Below, piece by piece: positions 21,371 to 41,044 of a stretch of 64,000 nucleotides of DNA (position 1 is its first letter; each line of letters opens with the position of its first letter). The notes under the pieces are model-generated. The model ran no database searches. It had not been told where the DNA came from and was given only the letters and a program-made list of their open reading frames with translations. The DNA is from Deltaproteobacteria bacterium (GTDB lineage Bacteria; Desulfobacterota_D; UBA1144; Nemesobacterales; UBA2774). Location: the NCBI GenBank assembly GCA_040223695.1, contig JAVKFU010000013.1, positions 126,641 through 190,640 on the forward strand. The letters are read 5' to 3'. Position numbers and translations under genes: made by a program.

Positions 21371-21982
21371 CTACGACAGGCCGACCGAGATATGAACGAG
21401 ATTGGCAAGGAAATGAAACAGTATGCTTGCCCAAAGGGTGCCTGTAACGTAATACAGGTATCCCATTACGAGCGAGGGAAAGAAGGTGAGCACAGCTTGG
21501 GAACACACGGCCAGGCCGTGTCCTCCGCCCAGGCAGAGCGTGACAAAATGCCCGAGGGCGAAGAGGAGACTCACAATTATTATGCCTTTTATGCTGTTCC
21601 CGATTTTTTGCTGAAGGTAACCCCTGAAGAACACCTCTTCGGGCAAAGCGACGAGAAAGAGCTGCAGGAGAATGAATGAAAAAGAAAGATTATTTAAAGT
21701 GAGCGTTTTTCCGTAAAAAAAACCGTATGCGGCTAATACAGCGAGATAAATAAGTAAAATAACCGCCGACACCGCGACTCCGAGTAGCACCCCCCTCAAA
21801 TCCCACCCGAGATCGTTCATATCAGCTTTGAGAACTAGGGGAATTGAGAGCATCAAAAGCGCTGAAACGGAAATTACGTATTGCCAGGGTAAAAATAGAT
21901 TCAGAGTGAAGACAATTGAAATCAGCAGGGCGTAGAAGAATAAAGGAACCAGGTACTTACTTGTCTTGTAATCTGTTTTCAT
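21371..21982 (-). CDS. CPBP (Abi/Rce1-like) glutamic intramembrane protease, myxosortase-like
   Basis: QLFLVALPEEVFFRGYLQ, LLFALGH, TFFPSLVMGYL and FHFLAN motifs. Family assignment is confident; the subfamily is by recalled resemblance. Confidence 0.85.
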   Translation of the reverse strand: MKTDYKTSKYLVPLFFYALLISIVFTLNLFLPWQYVISVSALLMLSIPLVLKADMNDLGWDLRGVLLGVAVSAVILLIYLAVLAAYGFFYGKTLTLNNLSFSFILLQLFLVALPEEVFFRGYLQQKIGNSIKGIIIVSLLFALGHFVTLCLGGGHGLAVCSQAVLTFFPSLVMGYLYYVTGTLWASILFHFLANLVHISVGLS

Positions 21983-22049
21983 TTAGAGGGTGCTGAAATG
22001 AGCGATTTGAATATTTACAGCGTAAAAATACATAACCGGCTCATTCCGG

Positions 22050-23288
22050 TCAATAAAGCCTGTACCACCCAAATATGTTTATAAATAATACTCCCCAGAT
22101 ATTGACCAGGATGCCGAGAATTATCAAAAGTCTGTGATACCATTTTAGTTTATCTCCGATATCTATTACAGTAAGCAGAAGAAGAAACGGGTAGAAGTCC
22201 ATTGCGTACCGGTACCCGAATTGCGTCCATCCCGTCCCGCTTTTAATAAAGATAAGAAAGGCGATCGGTATGATAGCCGACCAGCACGCTATAGTCAGCC
22301 TGTTTCTCCACCCGGCAAAAAAAGCGAATATGAAAGCAGGCGTAGTAATAAAAACCGAAAGGCCTGCTTTTGAAGGAATTACATAAGGCCAGCTGTCGAT
22401 AAAAACGGGGGGGTGAAGCAGAAAAACATATAGATGGTGCCGAATATACGAAAGACTGAATAAACCCTTGTTAAACCAGGGCGAGACTTTTTCCTTGGCA
22501 GGAGTTATCGTATGAAGTGCATATGCTACATCAAACGGAGATCCGAACCTCAAATAGTTATAGAGAAAATTTAGCAGAATGAAAATGCCCAAGCCCGCGC
22601 AAAGGAGCAGAATCGGTCTTATTCTAATCTTTTTAAGGACAGAAAACTCCTTTTTATCGGGAAAAGACAAATTTGAAATCATGATAATAAAAAAAGGCAG
22701 GCTCAGTACAGTAGTTAACCTGGACCAGTATGAAGCGCCCAGAAGAAGGCCTATCAATAAAGAGCTTCGTCCGCTGAGCGTCGAGTGCACGGCAAGAAGC
22801 AAAAAGAACATGGAGGTTATCTGGGCGAAATACCATACGGAGCCCACTGTCGCCGTATACCAGTGAATAGAGCCGAACCCGAACAAGAGAGTGATCCAGA
22901 ACTGAAGCTCCCTGTTCCCCGTTAATCTCCTCGTTATCAGATAAACCAGTGAAATATTGACACCGCCCAACACGAGCGACGCGAGAGCCTGATTGAAGGA
23001 AGTTCCCCAAACGGCTACAAAGGGCATGATTAGCACAGCCGGCATGGGAGGATATATCACGTATGATTTTCCGTCCCTTATAACAAGCTCCTCGAAATAG
23101 AAAGGTGTGTCCGTTACGTACAACCTTCCGTGCAGAAAAGCATCGGCAAGATAGGTGAAATAGTTAAAAGGGTTCTCGGTTCCGGGCTGCGTCAGAAAAT
23201 AGACCAGAAATCCCGTCACGCAAAAAAGAAGGGCAAGCAACAAAGGGGAATATTTATTATCCCGTGGAGCGTATAGATTCATAGACAA
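22050..23288 (-). CDS. GT-C-like polytopic membrane protein, paralog 1 of 3
   Basis: About 10 TM segments. Shares LADAFLxGR, GASYWxRL, ITTPAF and QFGYRxAxDFYPF with 25287 and 26560. Confidence 0.7.
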   Translation of the reverse strand: MSMNLYAPRDNKYSPLLLALLFCVTGFLVYFLTQPGTENPFNYFTYLADAFLHGRLYVTDTPFYFEELVIRDGKSYVIYPPMPAVLIMPFVAVWGTSFNQALASLVLGGVNISLVYLITRRLTGNRELQFWITLLFGFGSIHWYTATVGSVWYFAQITSMFFLLLAVHSTLSGRSSLLIGLLLGASYWSRLTTVLSLPFFIIMISNLSFPDKKEFSVLKKIRIRPILLLCAGLGIFILLNFLYNYLRFGSPFDVAYALHTITPAKEKVSPWFNKGLFSLSYIRHHLYVFLLHPPVFIDSWPYVIPSKAGLSVFITTPAFIFAFFAGWRNRLTIACWSAIIPIAFLIFIKSGTGWTQFGYRYAMDFYPFLLLLTVIDIGDKLKWYHRLLIILGILVNIWGVLFINIFGWYRLY

Positions 23289-23403
23289 TATTGAAATAAT
23301 TATTCAATAATCGAGAAAGTTAGATTAACATAATATACGAATATTGAATTCGAGTAAAAAACTCTGTATTAGTTTTCGGTCAGAGAATAATTAGCCCAAT
23401 ACG

Positions 23404-24507
23404 ATGAAACTCAATAGTCCGCTGAGAGAATTATCCGTAATAATAATCGTCACGATAATCGGAACCTTTTTTCTTGCCTATGCGGCTTTTGTTCTACTTG
23501 AAGACACGTTCCCCGACTCTGTTATATCAATATGGAACACATGGGACACTCAGCATTATCTGGATATAGCGCAGTACGGTTATACAAACTCAGCAATCGA
23601 CGAAAAAAAATTGCAAATAGTATTCTTCCCTCTTTACCCCTTCATTATTAAAATCTTTTCGTTTGCATTTAAAGATTATCTGTTCTCGGCGCTTCTGGTC
23701 TCTAATATCGCATATGCCGGGGCGGTCGTTTACCTCTTTAAACTGGTCAGGATTGATTACGATGACGACGATGCCTTAAGAGCGGGAATATATATCTCCA
23801 TATTCCCAACCGCATATTTCTTTCACGCGCCTTATACGGAGAGTCTTTTTTTAGTGTTTACCGTAGCGAGCCTTTACTACGCGAGAAGAAGTAAATGGGC
23901 CCTTTCGGGAACCGCGGGAATGCTGGCTGCGGCGACCAGAATAACCGGCATTATCCTCCTGCCCGTCCTGGTAATCGAGTATCTGTATCAAAATGAATAC
24001 AAGATAAAAAACACAAGAAAAGAAATTCTGTGGCTGGGAGCAGTGGGCTTGGGTCTGTTATTCTATCTGGTTATCAATTACGTGACCTTCGGCGATCCGT
24101 TCAAATTCCTGGAATTTCAAAAAGGGCATTGGTCAAAAGAACTCGCCTTGCCCATTAAGGGGTTTTTCTCCGCCTGGAGCGGTATTTTCTGGCGTAAACC
24201 TGCAGATGCGCTTCTCGGAGGCTGGGCGGAAATCATATTCGCTGCTCTGGGGCTAATTTTAATTATTTATTCCTTTTTCCGTCTGCGTCTGTCTTACGGA
24301 GTATATGCCCTTCTGACATGGCTCACGGTTACTTCTACTTCATTCTGGCTGAGCATACCCAGATATACCCTTTCGATTTTCCCTATATTTATAGCGTTAT
24401 CCATCCTGGGCAGGCGGAAGGAGGTTAACTATCTAATCATATTTTTATCGCTTGTTTTCTACGCGCTTTTCCTCTCTCTCTTTATCAGATTCAGATGGGC
24501 CTTTTGA
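23404..24507 (+). CDS. PIG-V/GT76-like mannosyltransferase (GT-C)
   Basis: WNTWDTQHYLDIAQYGY...FFPLYP, YTESLF, RITG, SIPRY. Confidence 0.8.
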   Translation: MKLNSPLRELSVIIIVTIIGTFFLAYAAFVLLEDTFPDSVISIWNTWDTQHYLDIAQYGYTNSAIDEKKLQIVFFPLYPFIIKIFSFAFKDYLFSALLVSNIAYAGAVVYLFKLVRIDYDDDDALRAGIYISIFPTAYFFHAPYTESLFLVFTVASLYYARRSKWALSGTAGMLAAATRITGIILLPVLVIEYLYQNEYKIKNTRKEILWLGAVGLGLLFYLVINYVTFGDPFKFLEFQKGHWSKELALPIKGFFSAWSGIFWRKPADALLGGWAEIIFAALGLILIIYSFFRLRLSYGVYALLTWLTVTSTSFWLSIPRYTLSIFPIFIALSILGRRKEVNYLIIFLSLVFYALFLSLFIRFRWAF

Positions 24508-24583
24508 GATAATATTCAAAGAGATAATTGTTGAATTATACAAATGAGGGTAACTTAGCGATTTAACGCCCGGCATCAAAAAA

Positions 24584-25276
24584 ATGGACATAACCTTAAT
24601 CGTACCGACATATAACGAAGCAGAAAACATACCCCTTCTGGTCGAGTTAATATTCAGAAACTTCGAAGAGGCAAACCTCGAAGGGAGCGTAGTTATTGTA
24701 GATGACAACTCCCCGGATGAAACCTGGAAGAAAGCAGAGGAGCTCAAAAAGAGCCACACCAGGCTGGCAGTAATGCGGAGGCTTAATGAAAGGGGGCTTT
24801 CCTCCGCGGTATTGGAGGGCTTCCGAGCCTCCCGCAGCAAAATATTAGGGGTCATGGACGCGGATTTAAGCCATCCGCCCGAGAAAATACCTGAACTGGT
24901 CAATCCCATTATAGAAGGGGAAGCGGACATTGTAATCGGGAGCAGATATATAAACAGGGGGGAAATCGAGGAATGGTCTTTGAGCAGAAAAATATCTTCC
25001 AGACTGGCTACATTGGCGGCTTGCGGGCTTACCAGTATCAAGGACCCGATGTCGGGATTTTTTTTTCTGAAGCGCGATGTGATTGACAACGTCGAGTTAA
25101 ATCCGAAAGGGTTTAAAATAGGGCTTGAGATACTTGTAAGGGGAAACTACGAGAGGGTAATCGAGGTCCCTATAACGTTTCGGGACCGTATGTACGGGGA
25201 AACCAAATTAAACAGCAATGTAATTCTCGACTACCTGATCCAGGTAGCCGGACTATACATATATAAAATCTTTTAA
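24584..25276 (+). CDS. Polyprenol monophosphomannose synthase (DPM1/Ppm1-like GT2)
   Basis: VPTYNEAENI, VDDNSPD, VMDADLSHPP, GSRY, DPMSGFF, GFKIGLEIL. Confidence 0.88.
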   Translation: MDITLIVPTYNEAENIPLLVELIFRNFEEANLEGSVVIVDDNSPDETWKKAEELKKSHTRLAVMRRLNERGLSSAVLEGFRASRSKILGVMDADLSHPPEKIPELVNPIIEGEADIVIGSRYINRGEIEEWSLSRKISSRLATLAACGLTSIKDPMSGFFFLKRDVIDNVELNPKGFKIGLEILVRGNYERVIEVPITFRDRMYGETKLNSNVILDYLIQVAGLYIYKIF

Positions 25277-25286
25277 CACCGGACAG

Positions 25287-26516
25287 ATGATGAATCTTAC
25301 CCGAATCATTCAAAAGCGGACCTATTTATTAACGGCACTTATCTTTTTTTCAGTAACATTTTTAGTTTATTTCCTGACGGGAGAAGGGGAAAAAACACCG
25401 TACCACTACTTTGTACCCCTTGCCGATGCATTTCTGCACGGAAGGACTTATCTCTTAGAAAATATAACGTGGCTTAACGAACTAATAAATATTGACGGGA
25501 GATACTATGTAATTTATCCACCCATGCCGGCCTTCTTTCTCCTGCCCCAGGCCGCCATATCCGGTATGGAAGCCAACCAGACACTGGCCTCCGTTTTTTG
25601 GGGGAGTCTAAACGTGGCACTCGTATTTTTTCTGATGAGGCGGGTAACGAATAATCTGCGACTTCAGATCTGGATGACGATCCTGTTCGGATTCGGGACT
25701 ATACACTGGTATCTGGCGAGCATAGGCAATGCATGGTTCTTCGCTCACGTGGCATCGTTCTTCTTCCTTACCGCCGCAATTATCGAAACGCTGGGTAAAA
25801 AACGCGCTTTATTAATCGGCCTATTACTGGGAGCGTCATACTGGTGCCGATTGCCGGTTATTCTGTCGGTTCCTTTCTTTCTGATAATGCTCTCCGGTTT
25901 ATGGGTCAAGAGTGTAAATACCTCCAACCCCCTGAAAAGGGTTGATTTTATCCCCCTGCTTAAATTCGGCCTCGGAGTCGGTATATTTATAATTCTGAAC
26001 TTCGCTTATAACTACCTGAGGTTCAACACCATATTCGACATCGCATACGATATTCAAGCGGCAAGAGAGCCCTGGTTCTATGATAAAGGGTTATTCCACA
26101 TATCCTATATTCCGGATCACCTGTGGACTTTTCTTCTTAAACCCCCCGTATTTAGCTCGGCGGCGCCGTACGTCAAACCCGATTACATGGGCATGTCTAT
26201 TTTGATAACCACACCCGCGTTCATTTATTCCCTTTTCGCCGGAATCAGAAATAAATTCTCTTTAGCATGCTGGTCGGCAATAATACCCATCGCTGCCGTA
26301 TTGTTTATACACGGCGGGGTGGGATGGAAACAGTTCGGTTATCGATTCGCCGTTGACTTCTACCCCTTTCTCTTAATATTGACGGCTCTCGGAATAAAGA
26401 AGAACCTTACAGACATATCAGATTTGACATGGGACCAGAAAGCACTTATTTGTATAAGCGTTCTGGTTAACATGTGGGGAGTTGTCTGGATAAACAAATT
26501 CGGTTGGGTGCTATAA
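25287..26516 (+). CDS. GT-C-like polytopic membrane protein, paralog 2 of 3
   Basis: Same motif set as 22050 and 26560; ends WINKFGW. Confidence 0.7.
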   Translation: MMNLTRIIQKRTYLLTALIFFSVTFLVYFLTGEGEKTPYHYFVPLADAFLHGRTYLLENITWLNELINIDGRYYVIYPPMPAFFLLPQAAISGMEANQTLASVFWGSLNVALVFFLMRRVTNNLRLQIWMTILFGFGTIHWYLASIGNAWFFAHVASFFFLTAAIIETLGKKRALLIGLLLGASYWCRLPVILSVPFFLIMLSGLWVKSVNTSNPLKRVDFIPLLKFGLGVGIFIILNFAYNYLRFNTIFDIAYDIQAAREPWFYDKGLFHISYIPDHLWTFLLKPPVFSSAAPYVKPDYMGMSILITTPAFIYSLFAGIRNKFSLACWSAIIPIAAVLFIHGGVGWKQFGYRFAVDFYPFLLILTALGIKKNLTDISDLTWDQKALICISVLVNMWGVVWINKFGWVL

Positions 26517-26559
26517 TTCTTCATAAACAATAATAACAAGCCCAACCTTTTTTCTGAAG

Positions 26560-27774
26560 ATGGAAAATCAAAACCCAAGCGGTGATACTCATAAAATCGC
26601 CGTAGCCGCTCTTTTAATATTTTCCGTTACATTCGTTGTTTATTTTTTAACACGGGTGGAACTCCCGACTCCGTATAATAACTTCGTGCGTCTGGCAGAC
26701 GCCTTTTTAAACGGGCGCCTTCACCTTAACGAAAATTTAAACTGGCTCGAGCTCGCCCCCTACGAAGGTAGATATTATATTATACCGCCGCCTCTTCCGG
26801 CAATATTGATTCTACCGGTGGTCGCCCTATTCGGCCTGTCCACAGATCAGACATTAATATCTATTTTCTTCGGGAGCATCAACGTGGCCCTGGCTTTCCT
26901 GGCCGCAAGAGCGCTCACAAAACAAACAAGCGTTCAGATCTGGTCAACCGCAATGTTCGGCTTCGGTACCCTGCACTGGTGGGTAGCGACAGCAGGCGGT
27001 GTCTGGACGTTCTCACAGACGGTGTCAACGACATTCTTGCTAATCGCCATCCTGTGCGCCTTAAAAAACCGCCATCCTATTCTCGCAGGAGCAGCCCTGG
27101 GAGCCTCATACTGGTCGCGCCTCCCTACGATACTCTCGTTTCCATTCTTCCTGGCGATGTACTCGGGGGAGTGGCTCCATAGCGAACGGACAAAAAGTAT
27201 TATCGGAAGAATCAATTTACGACCCCTTGTCTGGTTCGGAGTGGGAGCCGGCATTTTTGTAATGTTTAATTTTGCTTATAACTATATGAGATTTGATACA
27301 CCACTGGATATTTCCTACTACCTGATACCCGGAGTACTCGAAGAACCCTGGTATCAGAAAGGCATATTCGATGTCACATACATACCGAGACACCTGAAAG
27401 TGATATTTCTCGGTTTCCCCAGGATAATTGATGAATTCCCGTACATAGTCCCCGGATGGCACGGAATGGCAATCTGGATTACGACGCCTGCATTCATTTA
27501 TGCCTTCTTTGCAGGCATAAGAAACAAAATTGCAGCCGGGTGCTGGCTCTCAATTATTCTTATCGCGTTTGTAGATTTCTGCCACGGCACCTGGGGATTC
27601 GCTCAGTTCGGATACAGATTTGCACTGGACTTCTATCCGTTTCTCTTCTTGCTTACGGTAAAAGGAATGGGTAACGATGTGAAATGGCATCACAAAGTAC
27701 TGATAATAATCGGCGTTCTCGTGAACCTGTGGGGGGTACTTTGGATAAACAAATTCGGCTGGGTAGTATATTGA
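26560..27774 (+). CDS. GT-C-like polytopic membrane protein, paralog 3 of 3
   Basis: Same motif set; ends WINKFGW. Confidence 0.7.
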   Translation: MENQNPSGDTHKIAVAALLIFSVTFVVYFLTRVELPTPYNNFVRLADAFLNGRLHLNENLNWLELAPYEGRYYIIPPPLPAILILPVVALFGLSTDQTLISIFFGSINVALAFLAARALTKQTSVQIWSTAMFGFGTLHWWVATAGGVWTFSQTVSTTFLLIAILCALKNRHPILAGAALGASYWSRLPTILSFPFFLAMYSGEWLHSERTKSIIGRINLRPLVWFGVGAGIFVMFNFAYNYMRFDTPLDISYYLIPGVLEEPWYQKGIFDVTYIPRHLKVIFLGFPRIIDEFPYIVPGWHGMAIWITTPAFIYAFFAGIRNKIAAGCWLSIILIAFVDFCHGTWGFAQFGYRFALDFYPFLFLLTVKGMGNDVKWHHKVLIIIGVLVNLWGVLWINKFGWVVY

Positions 27775-27775
27775 G

Positions 27776-28393
27776 CTATTTCTTAAAAACCAGATATTTA
27801 TAACCCAGGAAATCCCAGATTATTACAAAGACAATTGACGCGAATGCCCCGATATTTGCCCATATAATCGGCGATATATTACCCATGGGCCCTATCACAT
27901 TGACTATGAAAGACGCGACAGTCACATTAATGACAAAACCGATAAAGGATACGATTATGAATTTAAAAAACTGCTTTCCCATGCCTCTCGTTTCTCTGCT
28001 TTCAAATGTCCAGAACTTATTCCACGCGTAGCTGTTTGTCGCCGCGCATAGAAACGAGACGCTTTTAAAAATAGTATACAGAATTCCCTTCTCTTCACCC
28101 GAAATGAAAATCAAAAAATTCAACACACCGAAATCGATAGCAGTATTGGACACTCCGATAGGAATAAATTTGCCGAACTGAAAAAGAATATTCCGTCTGG
28201 TTTCGAGGTGAGAGGCCAAATAGACCCATAGAACGACGAAGACAGGAGGAATTATCAGCAGGGGCGGCCAAATAAAATTAAAGGAAATATTCCCTATATA
28301 TATTTCGCTTCTCAGCGTTCGCAAAATCGCAATGAAAAATATGGAAATTATAAAACCGATGATAAGCGAGCTGAAAAAATCCGTTCTCTTCAT
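27776..28393 (-). CDS. GtrA family protein (polyprenol-phosphate-sugar flippase-like)
   Basis: [21 protein letters not shown]...[11 protein letters not shown]...FFKFIIVS...KYLVFKK, with two extra N-terminal TMs. Confidence 0.88.
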
Positions 28394-28475
28394 ATAATCA
28401 TCCGAAAGACCGATAAACGGTCCCGTAGAAAATCAACAGGCCGGGGATAAGGATTCCGGTGAAAACTCTCAATAC

Positions 28476-29786
28476 CTATCTCCAGGTTTTCAGCCACATA
28501 AAACGGGTGAGCTCCGCATCCTTTACCGGAACCGCGGCCACTACCGGATAGAAATAGATAAAAACTCCCGCCGCCAAGAAAAAATATATTATCACCAGCA
28601 ACTTACCTTTCTTTGACCTAGACCACAAGCTGTTTAAAAAATAAGAACTGATCAAAAGAATAAAAAGGAATGAAGGCATAAAATGATAAAGGAAAACTAT
28701 TTTTCTTGGCGAAAATGCCCAGGGGAGCCAGTAGGCGAGAACGCTTACAACGGCAAACACAAGCGACGGCATCTCTTTTCTTATAACCTGAACAACGCCG
28801 AGGATAAAAAACAGAAGCCCGGTCCACCATATAAACGGGTTGCCCAGCATATATATATTAGAACGCAGGCCGTTACTCAGGTCCTCAAAGTGCAGATATA
28901 CGGGTCTTATTAATAAAGGCCATTGCCACCAGGCCGACTGGTATGGATGAGTATCCGTCACACCGCCGTGATAATTGTACATATTAGCTTGAAGTGAAAT
29001 GAAATCACCAAGCGAATTGCCGTAATAGAAAAAGGGTATGTATGTCGCAATATAAACTATTAAGGGAATCACTCCGAAAGCCAGAATCATTCTAGGAATT
29101 ATCTTCAAAATAGAGGCAACAAATGACTTTCCCCGAGACTCGGATGTGTAGACCTCAAAGTAATATATCAACAAGAAAGCCACCCCGGCCAGAAATTCCG
29201 TTATATACACTCCGCTCCACTTTATAGACATCGCCGCGCCGCAAAAGAATCCGGTCAGTACCAGGAATAAATTCTTTCTAGTCCTTGCGTACTTAACAAT
29301 AAACAGAGAGGCAAGGAGCAGAAAATCGGCCATAAATATATCGACCATGGTAATACGGCTTAACACGAAAAGAAAAGAATCAAAGCTGTAAAGAAGCGCT
29401 GCTATCAAACCGGCTCCTTTGCTCTGAAACAAATTTTTCCCGAGCAGATAAATAAACAGAGCCCCGAGTCCGCCGAAGAGAGCCTGGAAGAATCTCCAGC
29501 CAAAGGTATTGTTGCCGAATATCAAAATTCCCAGCGCGCTTATTTCCTTTCCGAGAGGCGGGTGGGTCCATTCATATGCCAGGTCCTCAGGCGCCTCGTG
29601 GTAGCTCTCCCACGCTGCTCTGTTTCCCTTGGCCATTTCCTGAGCGGTAAAAGCATAGTACACTTCGTCAAAGTAGTAACTCTTCGGAATTTCCAGACGA
29701 TACAATCTGACGCCGATACTAAAAATTAGTATCAGAAGAAGAAACAGCTCATATTTATACTTAATTATTGAAGATTGTAGTGACAC
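28476..29786 (-). CDS. Protein O-mannosyltransferase (PMT/GT39 family)
   Basis: YFDEVYY (catalytic DE), HPPLGK, FGWRF, SIKWSG, HPYQSAWWQWP, GNPFIWW, FLYHFMP. Confidence 0.85.
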   Translation of the reverse strand: MSLQSSIIKYKYELFLLLILIFSIGVRLYRLEIPKSYYFDEVYYAFTAQEMAKGNRAAWESYHEAPEDLAYEWTHPPLGKEISALGILIFGNNTFGWRFFQALFGGLGALFIYLLGKNLFQSKGAGLIAALLYSFDSFLFVLSRITMVDIFMADFLLLASLFIVKYARTRKNLFLVLTGFFCGAAMSIKWSGVYITEFLAGVAFLLIYYFEVYTSESRGKSFVASILKIIPRMILAFGVIPLIVYIATYIPFFYYGNSLGDFISLQANMYNYHGGVTDTHPYQSAWWQWPLLIRPVYLHFEDLSNGLRSNIYMLGNPFIWWTGLLFFILGVVQVIRKEMPSLVFAVVSVLAYWLPWAFSPRKIVFLYHFMPSFLFILLISSYFLNSLWSRSKKGKLLVIIYFFLAAGVFIYFYPVVAAVPVKDAELTRFMWLKTWR

Positions 29787-29801
29787 TTTTCTCCGTGAAT
29801 A

Positions 29802-33419: not shown

Positions 33420-33429
33420 CGAAAAAAGA

Positions 33430-35079
33430 TTAACCTTTTTTAAGATCTTTTAACAGAAGATCAGCCGCGCGTAAACTGAGTGCTTCGATTGTCAATGAAG
33501 GTGCTTCTCCTCCACCGGAGGTGGGAAATACGCTTGCGTCCGTAACGAGCAAATTTGATATGTTGTGTACCCTGAGTGACGAATCAACAACAGATGTTTC
33601 GGGATTATCACCCATACGGCAGGTTCCGTAAACGTGCGTAGCCGAAAAGTAATCGTAAGAAGATACCTCTTCAACAATTTCTTCAGCGCCGCTCGCATTT
33701 AATATTTCCTTTGATTTCTTTTGCATGAATTCAATGCTCTTAAGCTCGGGTTCCCCAAGAAAAGACTGTATTTTTGCGACAGGCACACCGTACTCGTCCT
33801 TTACCTTTGAATCTACAGTCACAAAGGTATCGTCATTAGGGAAGAATTCCGCAATCCCCCCGACCGCTATTGCATGTCCGAACCACTTATCCATTTCGCT
33901 GACAAACTCCTTACCCCAGCCCTCGAAGTAACGCATAGCGTAATTTACCGGTCCCATGGCGCTCCCCACCATAGGGAACAGTCTCAGCCCCCCCGGGAAT
34001 CCACGCTTCGGATCAGGATTATTCCACTTCCATACGACGCTATCGATCGGTATTCCCCTGTAGGAATCTGTCCTCTCGGGATGAAAAGCGACTGTTTCAT
34101 AAAAAGTGGTCTCCATGAAGTTTTTTCCGACGATGCCGCCTTCATTGATTTCAGAGTTCAAGAGAAGCCTCGGAGTCTCGACAGCTCCGCAAGCAACTGC
34201 GACATAATCGCCTTCTACAAAATGCTCCTTGCCGCTTTTGTCGTAATATACAACTCCCTTGACTTCGCTTTTTTCCTTTTTCTTCTCCACTTCAATACGT
34301 GTTACATAGACATTTTCGAGTATTTCACAATTTCCGGTATCCTCGATAAGAGGAATAAAAGTAACGTCAACGCTTCCCTTATCTTTTCGCGGACAACCCC
34401 AGATACATCCATTGCAGTAATTACAGGGAGGCGCGTCTCTATAAAGACTTGAAAGAATAGCGACAGAATTCGGTAGAAGATCAATTCCCTGTTTTTTACA
34501 TCCCTTTTCAACTATTTGGCTCGCGTAGCTCAGCTGGTGCGGCTTTAGAGGATAGGGCTTGTTTTTCGGACGATATGGAATCTTGGCGGGGCCGGCTACG
34601 CCGATTATCTTTTCAGCTTCGGTGTAATAGGGCTCAAGGTCTTTGTAGTCAATGGGCCAATCCACAGCCACACCGAATTCGCTCTTCATTTTGAACGCGT
34701 TCTCATTCAGTCTATGGGCCTCGCCCTGATAATGAAGGGTAGTGCCCCCAATGCCCGATACCTGCTGATATTTATGATATCTTCTTTCTTTTCCGTGATT
34801 AAGCTTTCCTGAAGCTTTGTTCCAGGATCTGAGATTTTCATATTTAGTGTCAAGAGTCTGCTTTTCGCCGAACGTGTAGCGGATTTTCCTCTTGTAAGGA
34901 AATCCCTTTAATTCCCAATCCGTCTCATCAAGTGCGTAGTCTTTGTAGGGATCGTAACGAGGTCCCGCCTCGAGCAGTAGCACGCTCATCCCACTTGAAG
35001 CAAGTTTCCACGCAAAAGGAGCCCCACCGGGGCCCGATCCTATAACAAGACAGTCATATTTTTTTTTCTTTGAGGGCAT
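33430..35079 (-). CDS. GMC-family FAD oxidoreductase (gluconate 2-dehydrogenase flavoprotein-like)
   Basis: VIGSGPGG, GIGGTTLHY, CNYCNGC, ACGAVETPRLLLNS, HVYGTCRMG, DASVFPT. No signal peptide. Confidence 0.92.
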   Translation of the reverse strand: MPSKKKKYDCLVIGSGPGGAPFAWKLASSGMSVLLLEAGPRYDPYKDYALDETDWELKGFPYKRKIRYTFGEKQTLDTKYENLRSWNKASGKLNHGKERRYHKYQQVSGIGGTTLHYQGEAHRLNENAFKMKSEFGVAVDWPIDYKDLEPYYTEAEKIIGVAGPAKIPYRPKNKPYPLKPHQLSYASQIVEKGCKKQGIDLLPNSVAILSSLYRDAPPCNYCNGCIWGCPRKDKGSVDVTFIPLIEDTGNCEILENVYVTRIEVEKKKEKSEVKGVVYYDKSGKEHFVEGDYVAVACGAVETPRLLLNSEINEGGIVGKNFMETTFYETVAFHPERTDSYRGIPIDSVVWKWNNPDPKRGFPGGLRLFPMVGSAMGPVNYAMRYFEGWGKEFVSEMDKWFGHAIAVGGIAEFFPNDDTFVTVDSKVKDEYGVPVAKIQSFLGEPELKSIEFMQKKSKEILNASGAEEIVEEVSSYDYFSATHVYGTCRMGDNPETSVVDSSLRVHNISNLLVTDASVFPTSGGGEAPSLTIEALSLRAADLLLKDLKKG

Positions 35080-35096
35080 GGCAATAAGCGGTTGAT

Positions 35097-35125: not shown

Positions 35126-35179
35126 TTTATAAGTTATACATTTTGCTTTAACTTGCCAGCTTTTAACAAGGAGATATTT

Positions 35180-36037
35180 ATGAAAAGGATTATACCGCTT
35201 CTGCTACTAACGGTCATGTTCTCATTTGCATGCAGCCAGCCGGAGGAAAGCGAAAACAGTACAACCACGAATTCTGAAAATACGGTTGAAGTGCAACAGA
35301 AAGATTCCGCAGAAAAACAGCAAACGGATGCTCAAACCGAGAATCAAATAAAAAGGGTAAAACCGGAGAAAAAAGGCAAAGTAGTAGCGCGAGTCAACGG
35401 TGTGCCGATTTATGAGGACGAGATAAACGGTAAGAGTCTCAATTCAGCTATAACCGATGAAATCCTTTATCAGGAAGGCCTGAAACGCGGCCTCGACGAG
35501 AAATATGAAGATAGAGTCATGGAATACCAAATGTCCCTAGTTGTAAGGGATATGAAAAGCCGCATTTTAGGGGATTTACCTCCAACTAAAGAGGTATCAA
35601 ACGAGGAAATAGAAGAGTATTATGAAGCCAATAAAGATAAATATATGAATATAAAAATGGAGGAAATAAATTTTTCTGACAAGGAAAAGTCAGAGGAGAT
35701 AAAAAAAATGGTCGGGGACGGTAAAGATTTTAAGGAAATAGAAAGTCAATACCCGGAATCCGATGTAAAATTTAATGATTTAGGCTATAACAAAAAGCTA
35801 ATGAGATATTTCGATACCAAAGAAGTCGGAGCCGTTACCGAGGTAATTGAAAAAGGCGACGGAACCTATAGCGTGTTGAAAATTGTGGAAATTAAGGAAA
35901 TACCCACACATCAAGTCAGAAACTCTATCAAGCATAGTCTTGAAGCCCGCGCGAAGGCACAGGCATACAATGACTTTGCAGAGAAGATTAAGGAAGAGAG
36001 CAGCGTGAACATCGAAATTATCAATGAATCCAATTAA
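35180..36037 (+). CDS. Lipoprotein, PrsA/PpiC-type foldase (degenerate parvulin domain)
   Basis: SD AAGGAG, lipobox FSFAC, VVARVNG, ILYQEGLKRGLD, parvulin-like C-half. Confidence 0.7.
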   Translation: MKRIIPLLLLTVMFSFACSQPEESENSTTTNSENTVEVQQKDSAEKQQTDAQTENQIKRVKPEKKGKVVARVNGVPIYEDEINGKSLNSAITDEILYQEGLKRGLDEKYEDRVMEYQMSLVVRDMKSRILGDLPPTKEVSNEEIEEYYEANKDKYMNIKMEEINFSDKEKSEEIKKMVGDGKDFKEIESQYPESDVKFNDLGYNKKLMRYFDTKEVGAVTEVIEKGDGTYSVLKIVEIKEIPTHQVRNSIKHSLEARAKAQAYNDFAEKIKEESSVNIEIINESN

Positions 36038-36046
36038 AAATTAGAT

Positions 36047-36583
36047 ATGGAAAATTCAAGAAGAAAATTCCTCAAAACACTGGCCGCGGGCGCAATAGGC
36101 GGGGAAATAATGACAGCTCTGCCTGGTAATGTATTGGCAAAGAAGGAACCCTCCGGCGGTGGATTCGAGATTCAAAAGGGATTCAGGGTATTTAACGAGG
36201 TTACCCAAAAGAACATGCTAAAACTGGCAGAGGCTTTTGTGCCTGGATCCGAAGATATAGGGATCAAGGAAAAAGTAATGAACCTGGTGAGGAATGACAA
36301 GGGAGCAGCGGGCTTTCTGGATGCGGGCTTCTGGAATATCGATGCCCTTTCACGTGCAAAATTCGATAAGCCCTTTTACGCCCTTGAAAATAAAGAAGAT
36401 ATAGACCGCATAATTAAACACGTTAGTGTGAGGAACAGAACTTTTTTCCTTCAATTCAAAGGTATCGTTATGAAATTTTACTATTCCGACCCGAGTGTCT
36501 GGAAGAAACTGTCTTACCAGGGTCCGCCTCAGCCCAGGGGTTTTATGGATTATACGGAAGCTCCTAAAAAGCAGGGAGGTTAA
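36047..36583 (+). CDS. Gluconate 2-dehydrogenase subunit 3 family protein with Tat signal
   Basis: SRRKFLK twin-arginine motif; FYYSDPSVWKKLSYQGPPQPRG C-terminal motif. Confidence 0.75.
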   Translation: MENSRRKFLKTLAAGAIGGEIMTALPGNVLAKKEPSGGGFEIQKGFRVFNEVTQKNMLKLAEAFVPGSEDIGIKEKVMNLVRNDKGAAGFLDAGFWNIDALSRAKFDKPFYALENKEDIDRIIKHVSVRNRTFFLQFKGIVMKFYYSDPSVWKKLSYQGPPQPRGFMDYTEAPKKQGG

Positions 36584-36621
36584 TATCCAGTAATAGAGCC
36601 GATGACAGGTTCTTATCGGTT

Positions 36622-37770
36622 CTAATAAATTTCCCGCACCGATAGCAGGTTCAGCGTATTCTCAACCACACCCTCAATATTTATAGACTTTTCAAGTTCT
36701 ACAATTCTGCAGGCATTCGCTTTTGTTCTCGGGTTCGAGCTGATTATCGAACAGCAATCCTTGTATGACTCTATCGACATATCATACGTGCCGATATATT
36801 TAGCGAGATCGACAATCTCCTGCTTATCGTAAGTCAGTAAAGGTTGAAAAACCGGAATCGACACCGCACTTTTTAAAAGAGTAATATTCTCTATGGTTTG
36901 CGAGGCAACCTGACCCAGGCTGTCTCCGGTCACGAGCGCACCGCATCCCGTATCTGTTGCAACTTTTTCGGCTACTCTGGCCATGAATCTTCTGAATATT
37001 ATTAATTCATACCCTCTGGAATTTGAATTCGAGAGAAGGGCAGTTTCAAAGGGGTAATAAGGCGCCAAATGTATTCGAACGGGGCGCCGGTACGCCGTAA
37101 AGTACCTGAGCAATTTGCTTATCTTGGTACTTTCAATTTTTGCATTATCAGTAAATACATGGAAGTGGATAAAATCAACCTCACACCCCCGCTTCATCAT
37201 CAGAAAAGATGAAACAGGCGAATCTATACCGCCTGAGAGAAGGGAGAGCACCCTGCCGCTCACGCCCACGGGGAAGCCGCGTAAGCCCTCTTTTCTGTCG
37301 AAGTAAAAATAAGCCTCGTCGGCGACCTCAATGAATATACTCAAATCCGGATTTACGAGATCGACTTTCATGCCATATTTTTCAGATATTTCACGGCCGA
37401 TTCTATCGGCTATTTGCATAGATGTATAAGGAAATTCCTTGTCAGACCTCTTAACATATACGCCGAAGCTGGAATTGTTTCTCAATCGGGTTTTTATACA
37501 TTTCAAGACCTCCTTTTTTATAGACTCAATGTCTTTCATTACCCTGAAGGCCTCAGCGTACCAGGCGACGCCGAATACCCTGCTGAGAGCGTCTCTCTGA
37601 CCGCCTTCGAGAACAAAACGGCCCCTGAACCTCTTTACCGTCCCCCCTGCCGCTTTTTCAATATTCTGCTTAAGCTCTATTTCAAACAGACTTCTGTTTC
37701 TGCCTTTAAGAGACAATTCGCCATAATGGATTAAGGTAACCAGGTCTGCATTCATATTTTTAGATTCCAA
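36622..37770 (-). CDS. thiI: tRNA 4-thiouridine synthase (THUMP + PP-loop, no rhodanese domain)
   Basis: HYGELSLKGRNR, LLSGGIDSPVS, TGDSLGQVASQT, DKQEIV, DCC. The likely start is ATG 37755. Confidence 0.93.
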   Translation of the reverse strand: MESKNMNADLVTLIHYGELSLKGRNRSLFEIELKQNIEKAAGGTVKRFRGRFVLEGGQRDALSRVFGVAWYAEAFRVMKDIESIKKEVLKCIKTRLRNNSSFGVYVKRSDKEFPYTSMQIADRIGREISEKYGMKVDLVNPDLSIFIEVADEAYFYFDRKEGLRGFPVGVSGRVLSLLSGGIDSPVSSFLMMKRGCEVDFIHFHVFTDNAKIESTKISKLLRYFTAYRRPVRIHLAPYYPFETALLSNSNSRGYELIIFRRFMARVAEKVATDTGCGALVTGDSLGQVASQTIENITLLKSAVSIPVFQPLLTYDKQEIVDLAKYIGTYDMSIESYKDCCSIISSNPRTKANACRIVELEKSINIEGVVENTLNLLSVREIY

Positions 37771-37886
37771 AGAAGTATAAATTACCAGAGACCCCGCCGG
37801 TTAATAATACATGTTTAAATAGCCGGAGAAAAAAGATAACTCCGTCACTCCGTTATACTCGCAAAGCAGAGTTCTCGGCTCTTCAT

Positions 37887-37925
37887 AAAAAAAACCGGAA
37901 GAGCCTGTTATGGCTCTTCCGGTTT
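37887..37925 (-). terminator. Intrinsic terminator downstream of the surface-protein operon
   Basis: Perfect 14-bp stem AAACCGGAAGAGCC / GGCTCTTCCGGTTT with a 6-nt loop, running into a U8 tract on the minus strand. Confidence 0.85.
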
Positions 37926-38020
37926 AACTTTTAATGTTTATTCTCTTCGTTTTAAATCAGAAAGAAATATTCGGGTGGCAGAACCACTTCCGCCACCCGT
38001 GATTGATTATTCAAATTCTT

Positions 38021-40024
38021 TTATTTCTTTCTTCTTCTTACAGCTCTGACACCGAATGCAAAGGCTACAGGAATTAAAGGTATAAGAACGTTAGCCATTG
38101 CTGTACCAAGCTGTATCGGGTTTCCGGCAATTGCGCAACTGCTGCTTCCGCCACCGCCAGTAGGAGTAGGCGTCGGGGTAACAGGAGGAATAGTCGGTCC
38201 GATTGTCGGAGGCGGTCCAGTCGTAGGCGTAAGAGTCGGCGCTACGAAATCTTCGCTAATTACTACACTAGCGTCCACTCCGAGCCTTGTGAAACAGACT
38301 CTAGCGTCTCCGCAGCTTGTGAACTCTTCAAATTCGTCCCAAATACCGACCTGGGCGTCTATGAATGCAGCCAGAGGCCTGTACCTCGGGAAGTACTCAT
38401 CCGCGAAGTTGATGTGAACAACGTCAGCACCTGCTGCGCCGTTCTGCACGTTGAACTGGCCGGCAAACTCATCCGGCACCTGGTCGTTCAGGAATGAGTT
38501 GAACCCGTTCAGGATATTCAGACCATCACCTTCAAAGGCGCAAAATCCGCCAGCCTCTTCGAGAAGGGTGAAGTTGTCAACAACCGCGCCGTTCGTGGGA
38601 CGGTTGACTATGTCAGAGTTCTCGAAACAGCTTCCAAACGCACCACTTTCTACCTCCTGACCGGTTATAACCTGCAGGACATAAGTCTGTCCTCCGGCAA
38701 CAGACAGACTATCCGAATCAATAGGAGTTTTACCTCCCTGGAATTCTACAGGCGAGCCTGCGAGGGAGTACTGCTGACCATCGTCACCGAGCGCAGCACA
38801 GCCGAATGTGCCATCGACCAATCCTGCTCCGGTGCCGTTATAACAATTACAATCCGCGAAAAACCAATTGAGCGGATCGGGGTCTGTTATGTTTATAGCG
38901 CAAACCACCGTATAGTTGTCACATGCGACAAGCAGAGGATCATTCGGATTGAATACCTGAAAGTCGTAAGAAACAGAACTACTCAAGGTAGGCGTGAATG
39001 AAGCGCTCTGAAAAACAGATACATTGGTTTCAGTTGACTGTCCAATCAGCGATGTAGTGGCCAAATTAGTAGCTATACCCCCGCCATATGTACCGGACGG
39101 GGAATTATCATCGTCGGAATATACGAGAGCCTGGAATAAATCAGCGTCCGAATCGGCACAATCAGGATTGTCCGGGTCGTCGCAAGGAGGAACGGGGACA
39201 GGCGGGTTAAAATCACCCTCGGTGACTATATCCGTGTTACCCTGCGTTGCACCCCAATCGGCAGATCCATTCTGGAAGCTTCCATTGGCGATAATGTTAT
39301 CGAAGAATATATCGTCGAAACATACGCCGACTCTGGTGTATGTATTTATACCATATAGATAGTCAGCTGAATCGAGCATATACATAGTGCCGGCCAGGAA
39401 ATTATAATCTATAGCCTGGTCGGGCGAAGGACACTCGTCAACGGCAGTAATTGTTACGAACCCTTCTTTGCCCTGAAGAATGGTGTCGTCGGGGGTATCG
39501 CCCTCGTTATCTACAAGGTTGCCAAAGTCATAAACGTGTGTGTCCTCTACTGTATAAACATCACAGAAGTCTCTGATTTCAACACAATTTTCGTCCAGGA
39601 TACGGACATGAACATTCACAAAAGGCACGCCGAAAATATCAGTTTCGGGCCCTTCATCATAATTGGTAACCTGAATGTATGTGTTTCTGCCGTTTTTCTG
39701 GCTCCACCACGTTATGAGCTGAGCGCCCACTTCGTTGGTAGGCCTCAGGTGAAAAACATCAGTGAAATCAACATGCTGCCAATCAAGCCCAGCCACGTTA
39801 GCGCCACCGAAACCTTCGACCGTCCCTATAAGGGCAGCCGAAAAATCAGGCGGTGCGGTTGAAACCGGGTCAATTTGGGTATCTAACCAACCGTTAGTTA
39901 CCGGCACACCCGGGCAGAACTGCAAATCAGTGCCGGGCTGTCCTTTAGCCTGGTCTTGAAGACCGAAGCCGAAAAGGACAAGCATTAATACAGCAATCAA
40001 TGAAAACCTTAACTTGCTTATCAT
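38021..40024 (-). CDS. Large acidic exported protein with Pro/Thr linker and C-terminal Gly-Cys/TM/RRRKK sorting signal (S-layer-like candidate)
   Basis: SD AAGGAGGA before ATG 40024; signal peptide; Asp/Gly/Cys rich; ends PTPTPTGGGGSSSCAIAGNPIQLGTAMANVLIPLIPVAFAFGVRAVRRRKK. The ORF is certain, the function is inferred. Confidence 0.8.
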   Translation of the reverse strand: MISKLRFSLIAVLMLVLFGFGLQDQAKGQPGTDLQFCPGVPVTNGWLDTQIDPVSTAPPDFSAALIGTVEGFGGANVAGLDWQHVDFTDVFHLRPTNEVGAQLITWWSQKNGRNTYIQVTNYDEGPETDIFGVPFVNVHVRILDENCVEIRDFCDVYTVEDTHVYDFGNLVDNEGDTPDDTILQGKEGFVTITAVDECPSPDQAIDYNFLAGTMYMLDSADYLYGINTYTRVGVCFDDIFFDNIIANGSFQNGSADWGATQGNTDIVTEGDFNPPVPVPPCDDPDNPDCADSDADLFQALVYSDDDNSPSGTYGGGIATNLATTSLIGQSTETNVSVFQSASFTPTLSSSVSYDFQVFNPNDPLLVACDNYTVVCAINITDPDPLNWFFADCNCYNGTGAGLVDGTFGCAALGDDGQQYSLAGSPVEFQGGKTPIDSDSLSVAGGQTYVLQVITGQEVESGAFGSCFENSDIVNRPTNGAVVDNFTLLEEAGGFCAFEGDGLNILNGFNSFLNDQVPDEFAGQFNVQNGAAGADVVHINFADEYFPRYRPLAAFIDAQVGIWDEFEEFTSCGDARVCFTRLGVDASVVISEDFVAPTLTPTTGPPPTIGPTIPPVTPTPTPTGGGGSSSCAIAGNPIQLGTAMANVLIPLIPVAFAFGVRAVRRRKK

Positions 40025-40081
40025 TAATTTATCCTCCTTTTTTAAATTTATTTCGTGTTTGAAATTCATTGTTGTTTATCC

Positions 40082-41044
40082 TTAGAGCAGCTCGAAGCTA
40101 ACTCCCCACCAGGAATCCATGGAGCCCGTGCCGTTTCCGTTGTTGAGCCCGAGATAGCCGACGAAGAAAACGTCGAAGAAAAACTCACCAGTGGTTGTGT
40201 CACAAACAGTAGGGTCAGTGCAAACATGGGTTATAAACGGTAGAAGTAGCCAACCCGCGTTATTCCCTTCGTTCAAGATGCTCGCGTTACAAATTCTCGG
40301 ATATCCCTGGCTGTTCGGAATAGAATTATCTATACCTTTGTTCAGGCTGGTAGGGCCTCCTTCAACACAGGCAAATATCGCCGGGCTGCAGGATATAGGA
40401 AACTCATTCGCATCGAATATAAAGTTCTGAAAAGATATAGACTCGCCGAACTGGGTACCCAGATTCGGGGAAGCGAAGGTCTGAATGCTGTCTATAGATG
40501 CGTAAGTAAGACCGACAACATCCGACAGGTTGTTTCCGTTTACGTCGTTGAAGTTGAGGACATAATCCGCAAAGTCGTCAAAATCAAAAAATTCCGTGTC
40601 CGCGGCGTTAGTCCTGTATTCATAACCCGAATCGTCTATTACCCTGAACATTCCGATTATCGATCCGGATGGGCCGGAAAAAGCCGATACCGTAACGAAT
40701 CCCGTAGTCCCTGAAAGACTAGGGTTACCGGGCAGATTTTCGACATCATAAATGTTGGTATCACCAGGCGTCAATAAATCAAAAAAGTCCACCTCGTTAC
40801 AGTTCTCGCTGGCATTCCATACCTGAACGTGAATGTCAACAAAGTCATCCGACGTGTTCGTCACCTGTATAAATGTCGATCTGCCGATAGTGTCGTAGAA
40901 ATTAACCAGTCTGTCCACACCGGTGTCGGTTTGATCAATCGGCTCAAAAAATGCCGAACTTCCGGCAAATGCCTGCATTGGCACAACCAGCATCAAAGCA
41001 AGCACCAGTGAATACTTAATCTTGGATATAATATCCTGTAGCAT
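40082..41044 (-). CDS. Acidic exported protein, paralog of the 38021 gene core, no membrane anchor
   Basis: SD AAGGAGGAGAGG before ATG 41044 (a second in-frame SD+ATG lies at 41095); signal peptide ending MQAFA; shares blocks with the neighbour (TFIQVTN, GFVTVSA, DVV). Confidence 0.78.
   Translation of the reverse strand: MLQDIISKIKYSLVLALMLVVPMQAFAGSSAFFEPIDQTDTGVDRLVNFYDTIGRSTFIQVTNTSDDFVDIHVQVWNASENCNEVDFFDLLTPGDTNIYDVENLPGNPSLSGTTGFVTVSAFSGPSGSIIGMFRVIDDSGYEYRTNAADTEFFDFDDFADYVLNFNDVNGNNLSDVVGLTYASIDSIQTFASPNLGTQFGESISFQNFIFDANEFPISCSPAIFACVEGGPTSLNKGIDNSIPNSQGYPRICNASILNEGNNAGWLLLPFITHVCTDPTVCDTTTGEFFFDVFFVGYLGLNNGNGTGSMDSWWGVSFELL

Follow-up and report, generated by a model that had tools for sequence, protein, structure and literature searches.

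Does a member of Candidatus Dadabacteria carry its own version of C-terminal protein sorting by an intramembrane protease, and is such sorting tied to the glycosyltransferase genes beside which the protease is encoded? Both questions are raised by a 64,000-nucleotide stretch, hereafter the window, of a Candidatus Dadabacteria metagenome-assembled genome (MAG), a group that NCBI files under Thermodesulfobacteriota. The window encodes a CPBP-family (Rce1-like) glutamic intramembrane protease of 203 amino acids (aa) at 21371-21982 on the minus strand (PF02517), an island of predicted glycosyltransferases at 22050-31818 and, at 38021-40069 on the minus strand, a 682-aa exported protein that ends in a Gly-rich, Cys-containing tail and that we call the tail protein. 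A sequence-only reading of the window had placed all three in one pathway that would cleave, anchor and then glycosylate an S-layer-like coat. We find that the window probably encodes a Dadabacterial version of myxosortase-type sorting of Cys-containing C-terminal signals, in which the CPBP protease would cut off the tail and the island would be a separate module.

Sorting by myxosortases was predicted in 2023 (bioRxiv 10.1101/2023.06.07.544157) and shown experimentally in 2025 in one organism (PMC11980579); MrtX cleaves MYXO-CTERM signals in a Cys-dependent manner, in E. coli included (PMC11980579). What defines the MYXO-, JDVT-, Synerg- and CGP-CTERM signals is a three-part layout that includes an invariant Cys. 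We compared the window with about 790 kb of fetched loci from relatives, labelled L001-L041, and judged the gene context of CPBP orthologues in eight lineages (the window, L001, L002, L032-L035 and L041).

The CPBP protease and its relatives

The window protease scores 70.5 bits on PF02517, for which the cut-off is 22.4, and its catalytic motifs EExxxR, FxxxH and HxxxN are intact. In an alignment of 138 relatives, the E, E, R, F and H of these motifs are invariant and the second H and the N nearly invariant, and all are present in the window protein. The top NCBIfam matches are all to myxosortase (Mrt) models: MrtP (71 bits, cut-off 250) and Mrt_core (NF040914; 66.9, cut-off 100), with further matches to MrtS (59, cut-off 130), MrtC (55, cut-off 195), MrtX (46, cut-off 180) and MrtJ (37, cut-off 75). 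This ranking is not forced, because NCBIfam also includes CPBP models outside Mrt, which rank lower or give no match. As no second CPBP gene was found in the fetched loci to serve as a negative control from within the lineage, we used the generic CPBP protein MmRce1, whose Mrt_core score is 16 bits, as opposed to the 66.9 of the window protease. A phmmer search of the PDB with the window protease gave no matches and did not recover MmRce1.

The relatives of the protease point the same way. An exhaustive search of 1.84 billion representative proteins returned 787 at E≤1e-3 and nine at 1e-30. When the 138 best representatives were scored on the Mrt models, 65 matched MrtP at E≤1e-25 (best 1e-107), 58 Mrt_core, 55 MrtC, 29 MrtX and 11 MrtS, so that the closest relatives of the window protease outside its own clade are bona fide Mrt proteins (MrtP, MrtC, MrtX and MrtS). 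For scale, Haft counted 89 of 14,477 CPBP proteins, less than 1%, as coming from MYXO-CTERM genomes (bioRxiv 10.1101/2023.06.07.544157). The resemblance extends to the regions thought to select substrates. SIMBAL analysis of MrtX marked two substrate-specificity segments, VVALPEEFFYRGY and RLSVFFPALIFGW (bioRxiv 10.1101/2023.06.07.544157); the first corresponds in the window protease to LVALPEEVFFRGY, with 10 of 13 residues identical, and the second to AVLTFFPSLVMGY, which keeps the FFP.L..G core.

Gene context adds to this picture in sister clades, where CPBP proteins of 179-206 aa are 37-43% identical to the window protease over their full length and have its FFPSL(V/I)MG and PEExFFRG motifs in common. 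In all three such loci that we looked up, the CPBP gene adjoins or overlaps genes for secreted proteins with GGGC tails, the arrangement by which MrtJ was identified (bioRxiv 10.1101/2023.06.07.544157). In L036 (8001-11019) it is convergent with an S8 peptidase gene and lies beside a type II secretion system (T2SS) operon; in L037 (3488-8621) it overlaps the 3′ end of a gene for a 1509-aa adhesin, beside PilO, PilP and secretin genes; and in L038 (6116-10819) there are two S8 peptidase genes, the first overlapped by the CPBP gene and the second following it. T2SS or secretin genes are thus alongside in two of the three loci (L036 and L037). Each of the four proteins encoded next to these proteases has a C-terminus made up of GGGC[AS]I.G, a spacer, a PL-containing transmembrane (TM) helix and a basic cluster. 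Their proteases score 60-71 bits on Mrt_core, sub-threshold like the window protease, and neither tails nor proteases of these loci reach any NCBIfam cut-off. What L036-L038 hold looks like an unmodelled Cys-CTERM class of Thermodesulfovibrionales-type lineages. Dadabacterial CPBP proteins additionally have a lineage-specific, Cys-bearing insert between FxxxH and the FFPSL segment (aa 149-161, TLCLGGGHGLAVCSQ in the window) that the sister-clade proteins do not have.

The myxosortase-like assignment made in the sequence-only reading stands in so far as the Mrt models rank first and the protease does not cluster with generic CPBP proteins, but it does not extend to any named Mrt family, of which the protease is not a member by NCBIfam cut-offs. 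Its sequence supports a myxosortase-type enzyme that would form a new myxosortase-like subfamily, and marks it as a putative sorting protease.

The tail protein and its candidate sorting signal

The tail of the candidate client (aa 637-682; 38024-38161, minus strand) reads GGGGSSSC-AIAGNPIQLGTAMANVLIPLIPVAFAFGV-RAVRRRKK and is tripartite: a Gly/Ser run with the invariant Cys645 (38135-38137) is followed by an AIAGxPxQLGTA spacer and a TM helix with the pattern AN..PL..P..AF..G, and then by RAVRRRKK. A hydropathy peak spans aa 652-676. Across 61 full-length orthologues, the tail is the best-conserved region, with a mean identity of 80% as against 57% for the N-terminal domain, 37% for the variable middle and 60% for the C-terminal domain; because the body reaches only 37-60%, the tail is not a chance feature. 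Nine columns of the tail alignment are invariant (C, G, A, N, P, L, A, F and G), the single Cys included. Of the two Pro residues in the helix, P28 is invariant and P31 is present in at least 90% of sequences. Residues conserved within the TM helix have been taken by Haft to argue for recognition by an intramembrane protease (bioRxiv 10.1101/2023.06.07.544157). There is thus good support for reading the tail as a C-terminal sorting signal of the Cys-containing kind.

The tail protein has 84 homologues, essentially all in Dadabacteria-type MAGs. A scan with the pattern G[TS][AG][MLF]AN[VI]L[IL]P through one genome per species, 185,579 species in total, found 28 tail loci, every one in a Dadabacteria-type MAG. 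Most genomes have one copy, and the canonical tail is almost always carried by this one family, whose long and short forms differ by the variable middle domain. A regular-expression scan of the window found only one tail-bearing open reading frame (ORF). Other carriers, whose absence would have counted against the sequence-only reading, turn up among the relatives: in one divergent Dadabacterial genome, looser GGGGC-TM-basic tails end unrelated proteins of 826 aa (L024) and 758 aa (L031), an unrelated 1532-aa ORF (L031) has the canonical tail behind an apparent frameshift, and a relative's 1027-aa protein (L034) ends in a near-MYXO-CTERM tail (15.8 bits, cut-off 20). We dropped a profile search with the tail as a means of counting clients; it gave eight short fragments only, its word-based selection of candidates favouring short proteins. 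On the 2.67-Mb Dadabacterial chromosome OZ244991.1, the tail protein is encoded at least 15 times, in tandem arrays (L018, L019, L020, L022, L023 and L026) where every copy follows one of the 343-aa partner described below; this suggests a diversifying surface-protein family.

Upstream of its tail, the protein comprises a signal peptide, a variable CBM-like middle domain and a Thr/Pro-rich linker (aa 609-636; 38162-38245, minus strand). The likely true start is M16 (40024), which matches the database copy P0121. Over 79 homologues, Thr makes up 21% and Pro 22% of the 50-residue stretch that precedes the Cys; the corresponding shares for the body are 8% and 6%. The L035 tail protein (4380-5939) differs in that its linker consists of Asp/Cys/Gly-rich repeats (CxDxDCxxxxxC-like) and is not of the Thr/Pro type. 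The body has no Pfam or NCBIfam match. An AF2 model (pLDDT 85) is all-beta, with the tail at low confidence and block means falling from 69 to 50 over the linker (residues 611-640); Foldseek aligns it best, though with low TM-scores, to jelly rolls of the CBM22, MAM and gingipain adhesin kinds. The model suggests a surface protein with a binding or adhesin-like role, and no S-layer fold is recognizable in it. We did not adopt the S-layer label of the sequence-only reading, for which there is no positive evidence, the protein having no Pfam or NCBIfam domain and a model of CBM-like beta-sandwich domains. We propose that the tail protein is an exported, acidic, Cys-rich, all-beta surface protein and a candidate sorting client. 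Directly 3′ of its gene are two strong terminator-like hairpins (37892-37999, minus strand) with stems of 12 and 14 bp, eight GC pairs each and T-rich tracts behind them; these are consensus matches only.

The partner, a 343-aa exported protein (40082-41113, minus strand), shares the N-terminal 'IQVTN' beta domain of the tail protein (BLASTP E=1e-9) and has no tail. Position 41044, at which the sequence-only reading had ended its region, is an internal ATG of this gene and its likely start. The 12-nt gap between the two genes we read as co-transcription. The pair is kept in all Dadabacterial loci examined and is multiplied as a unit in OZ244991.1; in L007 (7013-10138), from a RIFCSPHIGHO2 Dadabacteria MAG, the two are fused into one 1041-aa ORF, which supports the idea that they work as a unit.

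How firmly the protease can be tied to this client depends on their linkage, most of which carries little information. The block from the S41 peptidase gene to gltB/gltD is collinear across the whole phylum, and linkage within it is therefore uninformative; for this reason we rejected conserved synteny as functional evidence and regard only the divergent lineages (L032-L035, with CPBP orthologues 42-46% identical to the window protease, and L039 and L040) as informative. Protease and tail genes share a contig in the window, L001/L011, L002/L014, L034 and L035, a co-location at contig level. The distance between them is 16 kb in the window (16,039 bp, which bears out the roughly 16 kb of the sequence-only reading, as do the Thr/Pro linker and the Gly-Cys/TM/basic tail at that place), about 4 kb from the tail pair in L035 and a single gene in L034. 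The protease's most conserved linkage is to nadE, which follows it directly on the same strand in eight of eight lineages, with a 4-nt overlap in L034.

Several of these observations weigh against a sorting role for the protease. Together with its orthologues and nearest clades, it lies under every curated Mrt cut-off, and the window tail matches no NCBIfam CTERM model at E≤10, GlyGly-CTERM included. Protease and client are not adjacent, the 16-kb linkage falls inside the phylum-wide syntenic block, and L032 and L033 have no tail protein within 10 kb of the CPBP gene. The constant neighbour, nadE, is silent on sorting. No T2SS genes were found among the window ORFs at 2.9-58.1 kb, the range of our Pfam scan. 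Finally, the canonical tail sits on a single family in most Dadabacteria, and its conservation could reflect a TM function specific to that family. The sub-threshold scores, the nadE linkage, the near-confinement of the tail to one family and the synteny would all be expected if the tail were a permanent, uncleaved anchor in the inner membrane and the CPBP a nadE-linked housekeeping protease, near it by inherited gene order. We consider this improbable, as it leaves unexplained the invariant Cys behind a Gly run, the same tail design on unrelated proteins, the sister-clade CPBP genes that overlap genes of GGGC-tailed clients and the myxosortases as the protease's nearest relatives.

A different enzyme might process the tail. 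Its Gly run, TM helix and basic cluster resemble GlyGly-CTERM, on whose Gly-rich motif a rhombosortase would act, and an S41 C-terminal processing peptidase of 977 aa (42335-45268, plus strand), which has PDZ and CARDB-like regions, is encoded divergently from the tail-protein pair, a position kept in L007, L024, L028, L030, L035 and L040. We weighed both enzymes and judged them very unlikely candidates. There is no match to the GlyGly-CTERM model at E≤10 and no Rhomboid-family Pfam match among the scanned ORFs (2.9-58.1 kb), and an invariant Cys is the hallmark of signals processed by CPBP proteases. Free C-termini in the periplasm are what S41 peptidases act on, but the C-terminus of the tail is predicted to be cytoplasmic, and the position of the S41 gene belongs to the general synteny. 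The pairing of a myxosortase-type CPBP with a Cys sorting tail, as the sequence-only reading had it, is supported by the Mrt relatives, the MrtX-like segments, the GGGC clients of sister clades and the tail on unrelated proteins.

The candidate glycosylation island

The island comprises nine genes: three GT-C-like paralogues, one PMT_2/Mannosyl_trans2-like protein, one PMT, one weakly GT87-like protein, two GT2 proteins and one GtrA protein. Its best-defined member is a 436-aa PMT-family (GT39-like) GT-C glycosyltransferase (28476-29786, minus strand), which scores 84 bits on Pfam PMT (PF02366) and 90 bits on PMT_4TMC (PF16192), both above the gathering scores, and 67 bits on PMT_2; it has no MIR domain. 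Its YYFDEVYY aligns with VVFDEVHF in loop 1 of yeast Pmt1 (6P25), the site of the DE motif, and D40 and E41 are invariant in 11 orthologues. On the NCBIfam model for protein O-mannosyltransferase (NF058602) it reaches 119.7 bits against a cut-off of 800. By these sequence scores the protein is a true but distant member of the PMT family and not an equivalog.

The gene nearest the protease is less certain. It encodes a 412-aa polytopic membrane protein (22050-23288, minus strand) and lies upstream of the CPBP gene on the same strand, with a gap of exactly 67 bp; the sequence-only reading was right about the position of the CPBP gene and about the spacing and shared orientation of the two genes, and its GT-C label for the neighbour is one for which we have weak evidence only. 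The protein scores 48 on the NCBIfam model for the LA_3751/LA_3752 putative glycosyltransferases (cut-off 200) and aligns to the PMT profile in hhalign with a probability of 29% (E=6e-4), and a sequence search of the PDB with it gave no matches. An AF2 model built from the three window paralogues is poor (pLDDT 50), and its best Foldseek matches are all GT-C proteins (AglB, ArnT, PIG-M, Pmt4, DPY19 and ALG3) at E values of 0.05-0.9. These profile and model matches, weak as they are, suggest that the 412-aa protein and its paralogues are GT-C-like. The paralogues, of 409 aa (25287-26516) and 404 aa (26560-27774), both on the plus strand, score 435 and 399 bits. This tandem pair is represented by a single copy in L001 and L002, so the duplication inside the island is recent.

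Five further genes complete the island. The 367-aa PMT_2/Mannosyl_trans2 (PIG-V-like) GT-C protein (23404-24507, plus strand) scores 36.7 bits on Pfam PMT_2, and its orthologues have a precomputed PF04188 match. A 230-aa GT2 protein (24584-25276, plus strand) scores 114 bits on Glycos_transf_2 and, below cut-off in both cases, 84 on NCBIfam AglJ and 44 on dolichyl-phosphate hexose transferase; judged by its sequence, it is a likely donor synthase of the Dpm1/AglJ/polyprenyl-phosphate-sugar synthase type. They are joined by a 205-aa GtrA/DPMS-TM family protein (27776-28393, minus strand; PF04138, 72.6 bits), a 443-aa polytopic membrane protein (29802-31133, minus strand) that scores 18.9 bits on Pfam GT87 (cut-off 25) and adjoins the PMT gene in 17 searched loci, and a second GT2 protein of 234 aa (31114-31818, minus strand; Glycos_transf_2, 98 bits), whose gene overlaps the start of the 443-aa gene. 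The gene content fits periplasmic glycosylation from polyprenol-phosphate sugars.

Whether this island and the protease form one pathway can be judged from how they keep together. In such a pathway, PMT-type enzymes would O-mannosylate the linker, and the CPBP protease, co-transcribed with the GT-C gene, would cleave and anchor the same protein. Agreeing with it are the intact DE motif of the PMT, the presence of a GT2 of the polyprenyl-phosphate-sugar synthase type and of GtrA, the Thr/Pro enrichment directly before the tail and the short gap of 16-67 bp between the CPBP gene and its GT-C neighbour in core Dadabacteria. In L025, L027 and L040, a PMT or GtrA gene is found close to that of the tail protein, and in L032 PMT_2 and GtrA genes are within 5 kb of the CPBP gene in a different arrangement. 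The gene order of L035 (S41, permease, TruA, FAA hydrolase, the tail-protein pair, ThiI, PpiC, FG-GAP, CPBP, nadE and gltB) is otherwise that of the window, with the FG-GAP gene abutting the CPBP gene and exactly the nine-gene island gone; the only lineage without the island at this site, it is also the one with the Asp/Cys/Gly-rich linker. That linker type tracks island presence is suggestive, with L035 as the single case.

The coupled pathway is nonetheless rather unlikely in our view. Its correlation of linker and island comes down to that one negative case, the GT-C neighbour of the protease is confined to core Dadabacteria, and the island is not beside the CPBP gene in L033, L034 or L035; what the protease keeps in every lineage is nadE. 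L039 has a Thr/Pro-linker pair with neither a PMT nor a CPBP gene within 10 kb, and the sister-clade clients have no Thr/Pro linkers. Taken together, the contexts of L033-L035 and L039 on one side and of L025, L027, L032 and L040 on the other show that the island is loosely, not obligatorily, associated, and the 67-bp adjacency is probably incidental. Promoter and terminator scans around the CPBP gene gave counts near the shuffled expectation, and we draw no operon claim from them. The single pathway of protease, island and tail protein put forward in the sequence-only reading is not established: the GT-C adjacency is limited to core Dadabacteria, nadE is the neighbour in eight of eight lineages and L035 does without the island.

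A separate module need not act on protein at all. With six predicted GT-C-type proteins, of which three are paralogues, two GT2 proteins and a GtrA protein, the island has more than simple O-mannosylation needs; members of the island have weak NCBIfam matches to 'cell surface glycopolymer formation protein' and to Leptospira putative glycosyltransferases, and L035 shows the island to be dispensable at the locus. It is a serious possibility, although we lean somewhat away from it, that the island makes a lipoglycan, an exopolysaccharide, an envelope lipid modification or another non-protein glycoconjugate unrelated to the tail protein. Set against this, characterized PMT/GT39 enzymes are protein O-mannosyltransferases, the window PMT aligns with Pmt1, and in most lineages a Thr/Pro linker of the kind that Actinobacteria mannosylate is encoded 6-16 kb away. 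Membership of the PMT family makes O-mannosylation of the linker a reasonable supposition.

The other genes of the block are given here for orientation. On one side of the protease are nadE (NAD synthetase; 19494-21233) and gltB (14689-19293), both on the minus strand. Between the island and the tail protein lie genes for an FG-GAP/ASPIC protein (31866-33419, minus), a GMC oxidoreductase (33430-35079, minus), a PpiC-type protein (35153-36037, plus), a TAT-signal gluconate-2-dehydrogenase subunit 3-like protein (36047-36583, plus) and ThiI (36622-37770, minus). The GMC oxidoreductase and the subunit 3-like protein, whose genes keep their place between island and tail pair in most Dadabacterial loci examined, look like a periplasmic sugar or alcohol dehydrogenase. 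In L030 (MAG AC1.124; 8141-10121 and 14269-18221), the genes for the tail protein, GMC oxidoreductase, FG-GAP protein, GT2 and 443-aa protein are each broken into several ORFs, through either assembly frameshift errors or true decay of the locus.

Proposed mechanism and known sorting systems

By analogy with the characterized systems, the sorting route that we favour would run as follows. The Sec pathway would export the tail protein and its tail-less partner. The C-terminal TM helix would then keep the tail protein in the inner membrane, with RRRKK on the cytoplasmic side, and the invariant Cys, which lies outside the helix, would be modified, probably by lipidation as in the analogy of MrtX and TraA. 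The 203-aa CPBP protease would cut on the C-terminal side of the Cys, so that the TM helix is removed and a lipid-anchored surface protein is left, perhaps to be carried on to the cell surface. Each of these biochemical steps (cleavage, lipidation and surface display) is inferred from such analogies. The island would act on the periplasmic side as a separate module that uses polyprenol-phosphate sugars; it may O-glycosylate the Thr/Pro linker and would not be obligatory for sorting.

The nearest described parallels are the MYXO-CTERM signals and MrtX, with MrtC and MrtP, of Myxococcota and Bradymonadales. As there, the window tail combines a Gly-rich stretch and an invariant Cys with a TM helix and an Arg/Lys cluster, and the protease has EExxxR, FxxxH and HxxxN together with the segments LPEExFFRGY and FFPxLxxG. 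The differences are several. The window tail has a spacer of about nine residues (AIAGxPVQLGTA), two conserved Pro residues in a helix that in MYXO-CTERM is without Pro or charged residues, and a single Cys where GCGC is frequent in MYXO-CTERM; it does not match the MYXO-CTERM model (TIGR03901). Most Dadabacterial genomes have one client family as opposed to dozens of clients, and the protease, unlike MrtX, MrtC and MrtP, is only 203 aa long and below the curated cut-offs. In its single invariant Cys and its conserved in-helix residues, Pro among them, the tail is closer to the JDVT-CTERM (NF033191)/MrtJ and Synerg-CTERM/MrtS systems. Dadabacteria resemble the JDVT system in having few clients per genome, and the protease resembles MrtS (model length 170) in being short; MrtS is among the best NCBIfam matches, at 59 bits for the window protease and up to 80 for its relatives. 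Signature motif and lineage nevertheless differ from both systems, the scores stay below the MrtS and MrtJ cut-offs (59 against 130 and 37 against 75), and the Dadabacterial client lies 2-16 kb from its protease, whereas MrtJ adjoins its client in 16 of 17 cases.

Still closer in tail design, with GGGC[AS]I.G-type signals and a PL-containing helix, are the sister-clade loci L036-L038. There, in contrast to the window, the protease gene overlaps or abuts that of the client, T2SS or secretin genes stand beside it in two of the three and no nadE linkage was seen, and the clients are proteases or adhesins without a Thr/Pro linker. The glycosylation genes find their parallel in actinobacterial O-mannosylation by Pmt/GT39 and Ppm1, with which the window has in common PMT and PMT_4TMC domains without MIR, a DE motif in loop 1, a nearby GT2 candidate for the donor synthase and a Thr/Pro linker as plausible acceptor; it is set apart by the equivalog score (120 against 800), five further predicted GT-C-type proteins and a candidate phylum as host. 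In the S-layer glycoprotein of Haloferax, the PGF-CTERM signal is removed and a lipid anchor takes its place. The window tail protein is like this archaeosortase A substrate in having a Thr-rich, candidate glycosylated region before a C-terminal sorting signal, but its tail has no PGF motif and its putative protease is a glutamic CPBP enzyme unrelated to the Cys-active archaeosortase. A search of the literature for Dadabacteria together with glycosylation, S-layers or sorting found nothing relevant.

A broader conjecture, which we offer as speculation and think doubtful in its entirety, is that Mrt-like proteases of about 180-210 aa serve a multi-phylum, unmodelled class of Cys signals (GGGC[AS]I.G, spacer, Pro-containing TM helix and basic cluster) in Dadabacteria and Thermodesulfovibrionales-type lineages, and that the Dadabacterial client is a two-protein surface module whose linker is O-mannosylated by the PMT-type island. 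If true, this would be the first PMT-dependent, lipid-anchored glycoprotein coat described outside Actinobacteria.

On the reading that we hold to be probable, the locus would contribute a signal class and a protease subfamily, both of them new and uncaught by current curated models, from an uncultured and globally distributed phylum. Annotation pipelines now name such proteases 'CPBP family' and their clients 'hypothetical'. Together with the sister clades, the locus suggests that sorting by Cys tails and CPBP proteases is much wider than the four named systems, and it offers a concrete pair of client and protease that lends itself to testing in E. coli. Should the linker prove to be decorated by the PMT island, the locus would give PMT-type protein O-glycosylation a rare example beyond Actinobacteria and would make a tractable model of sorting and glycosylation combined.

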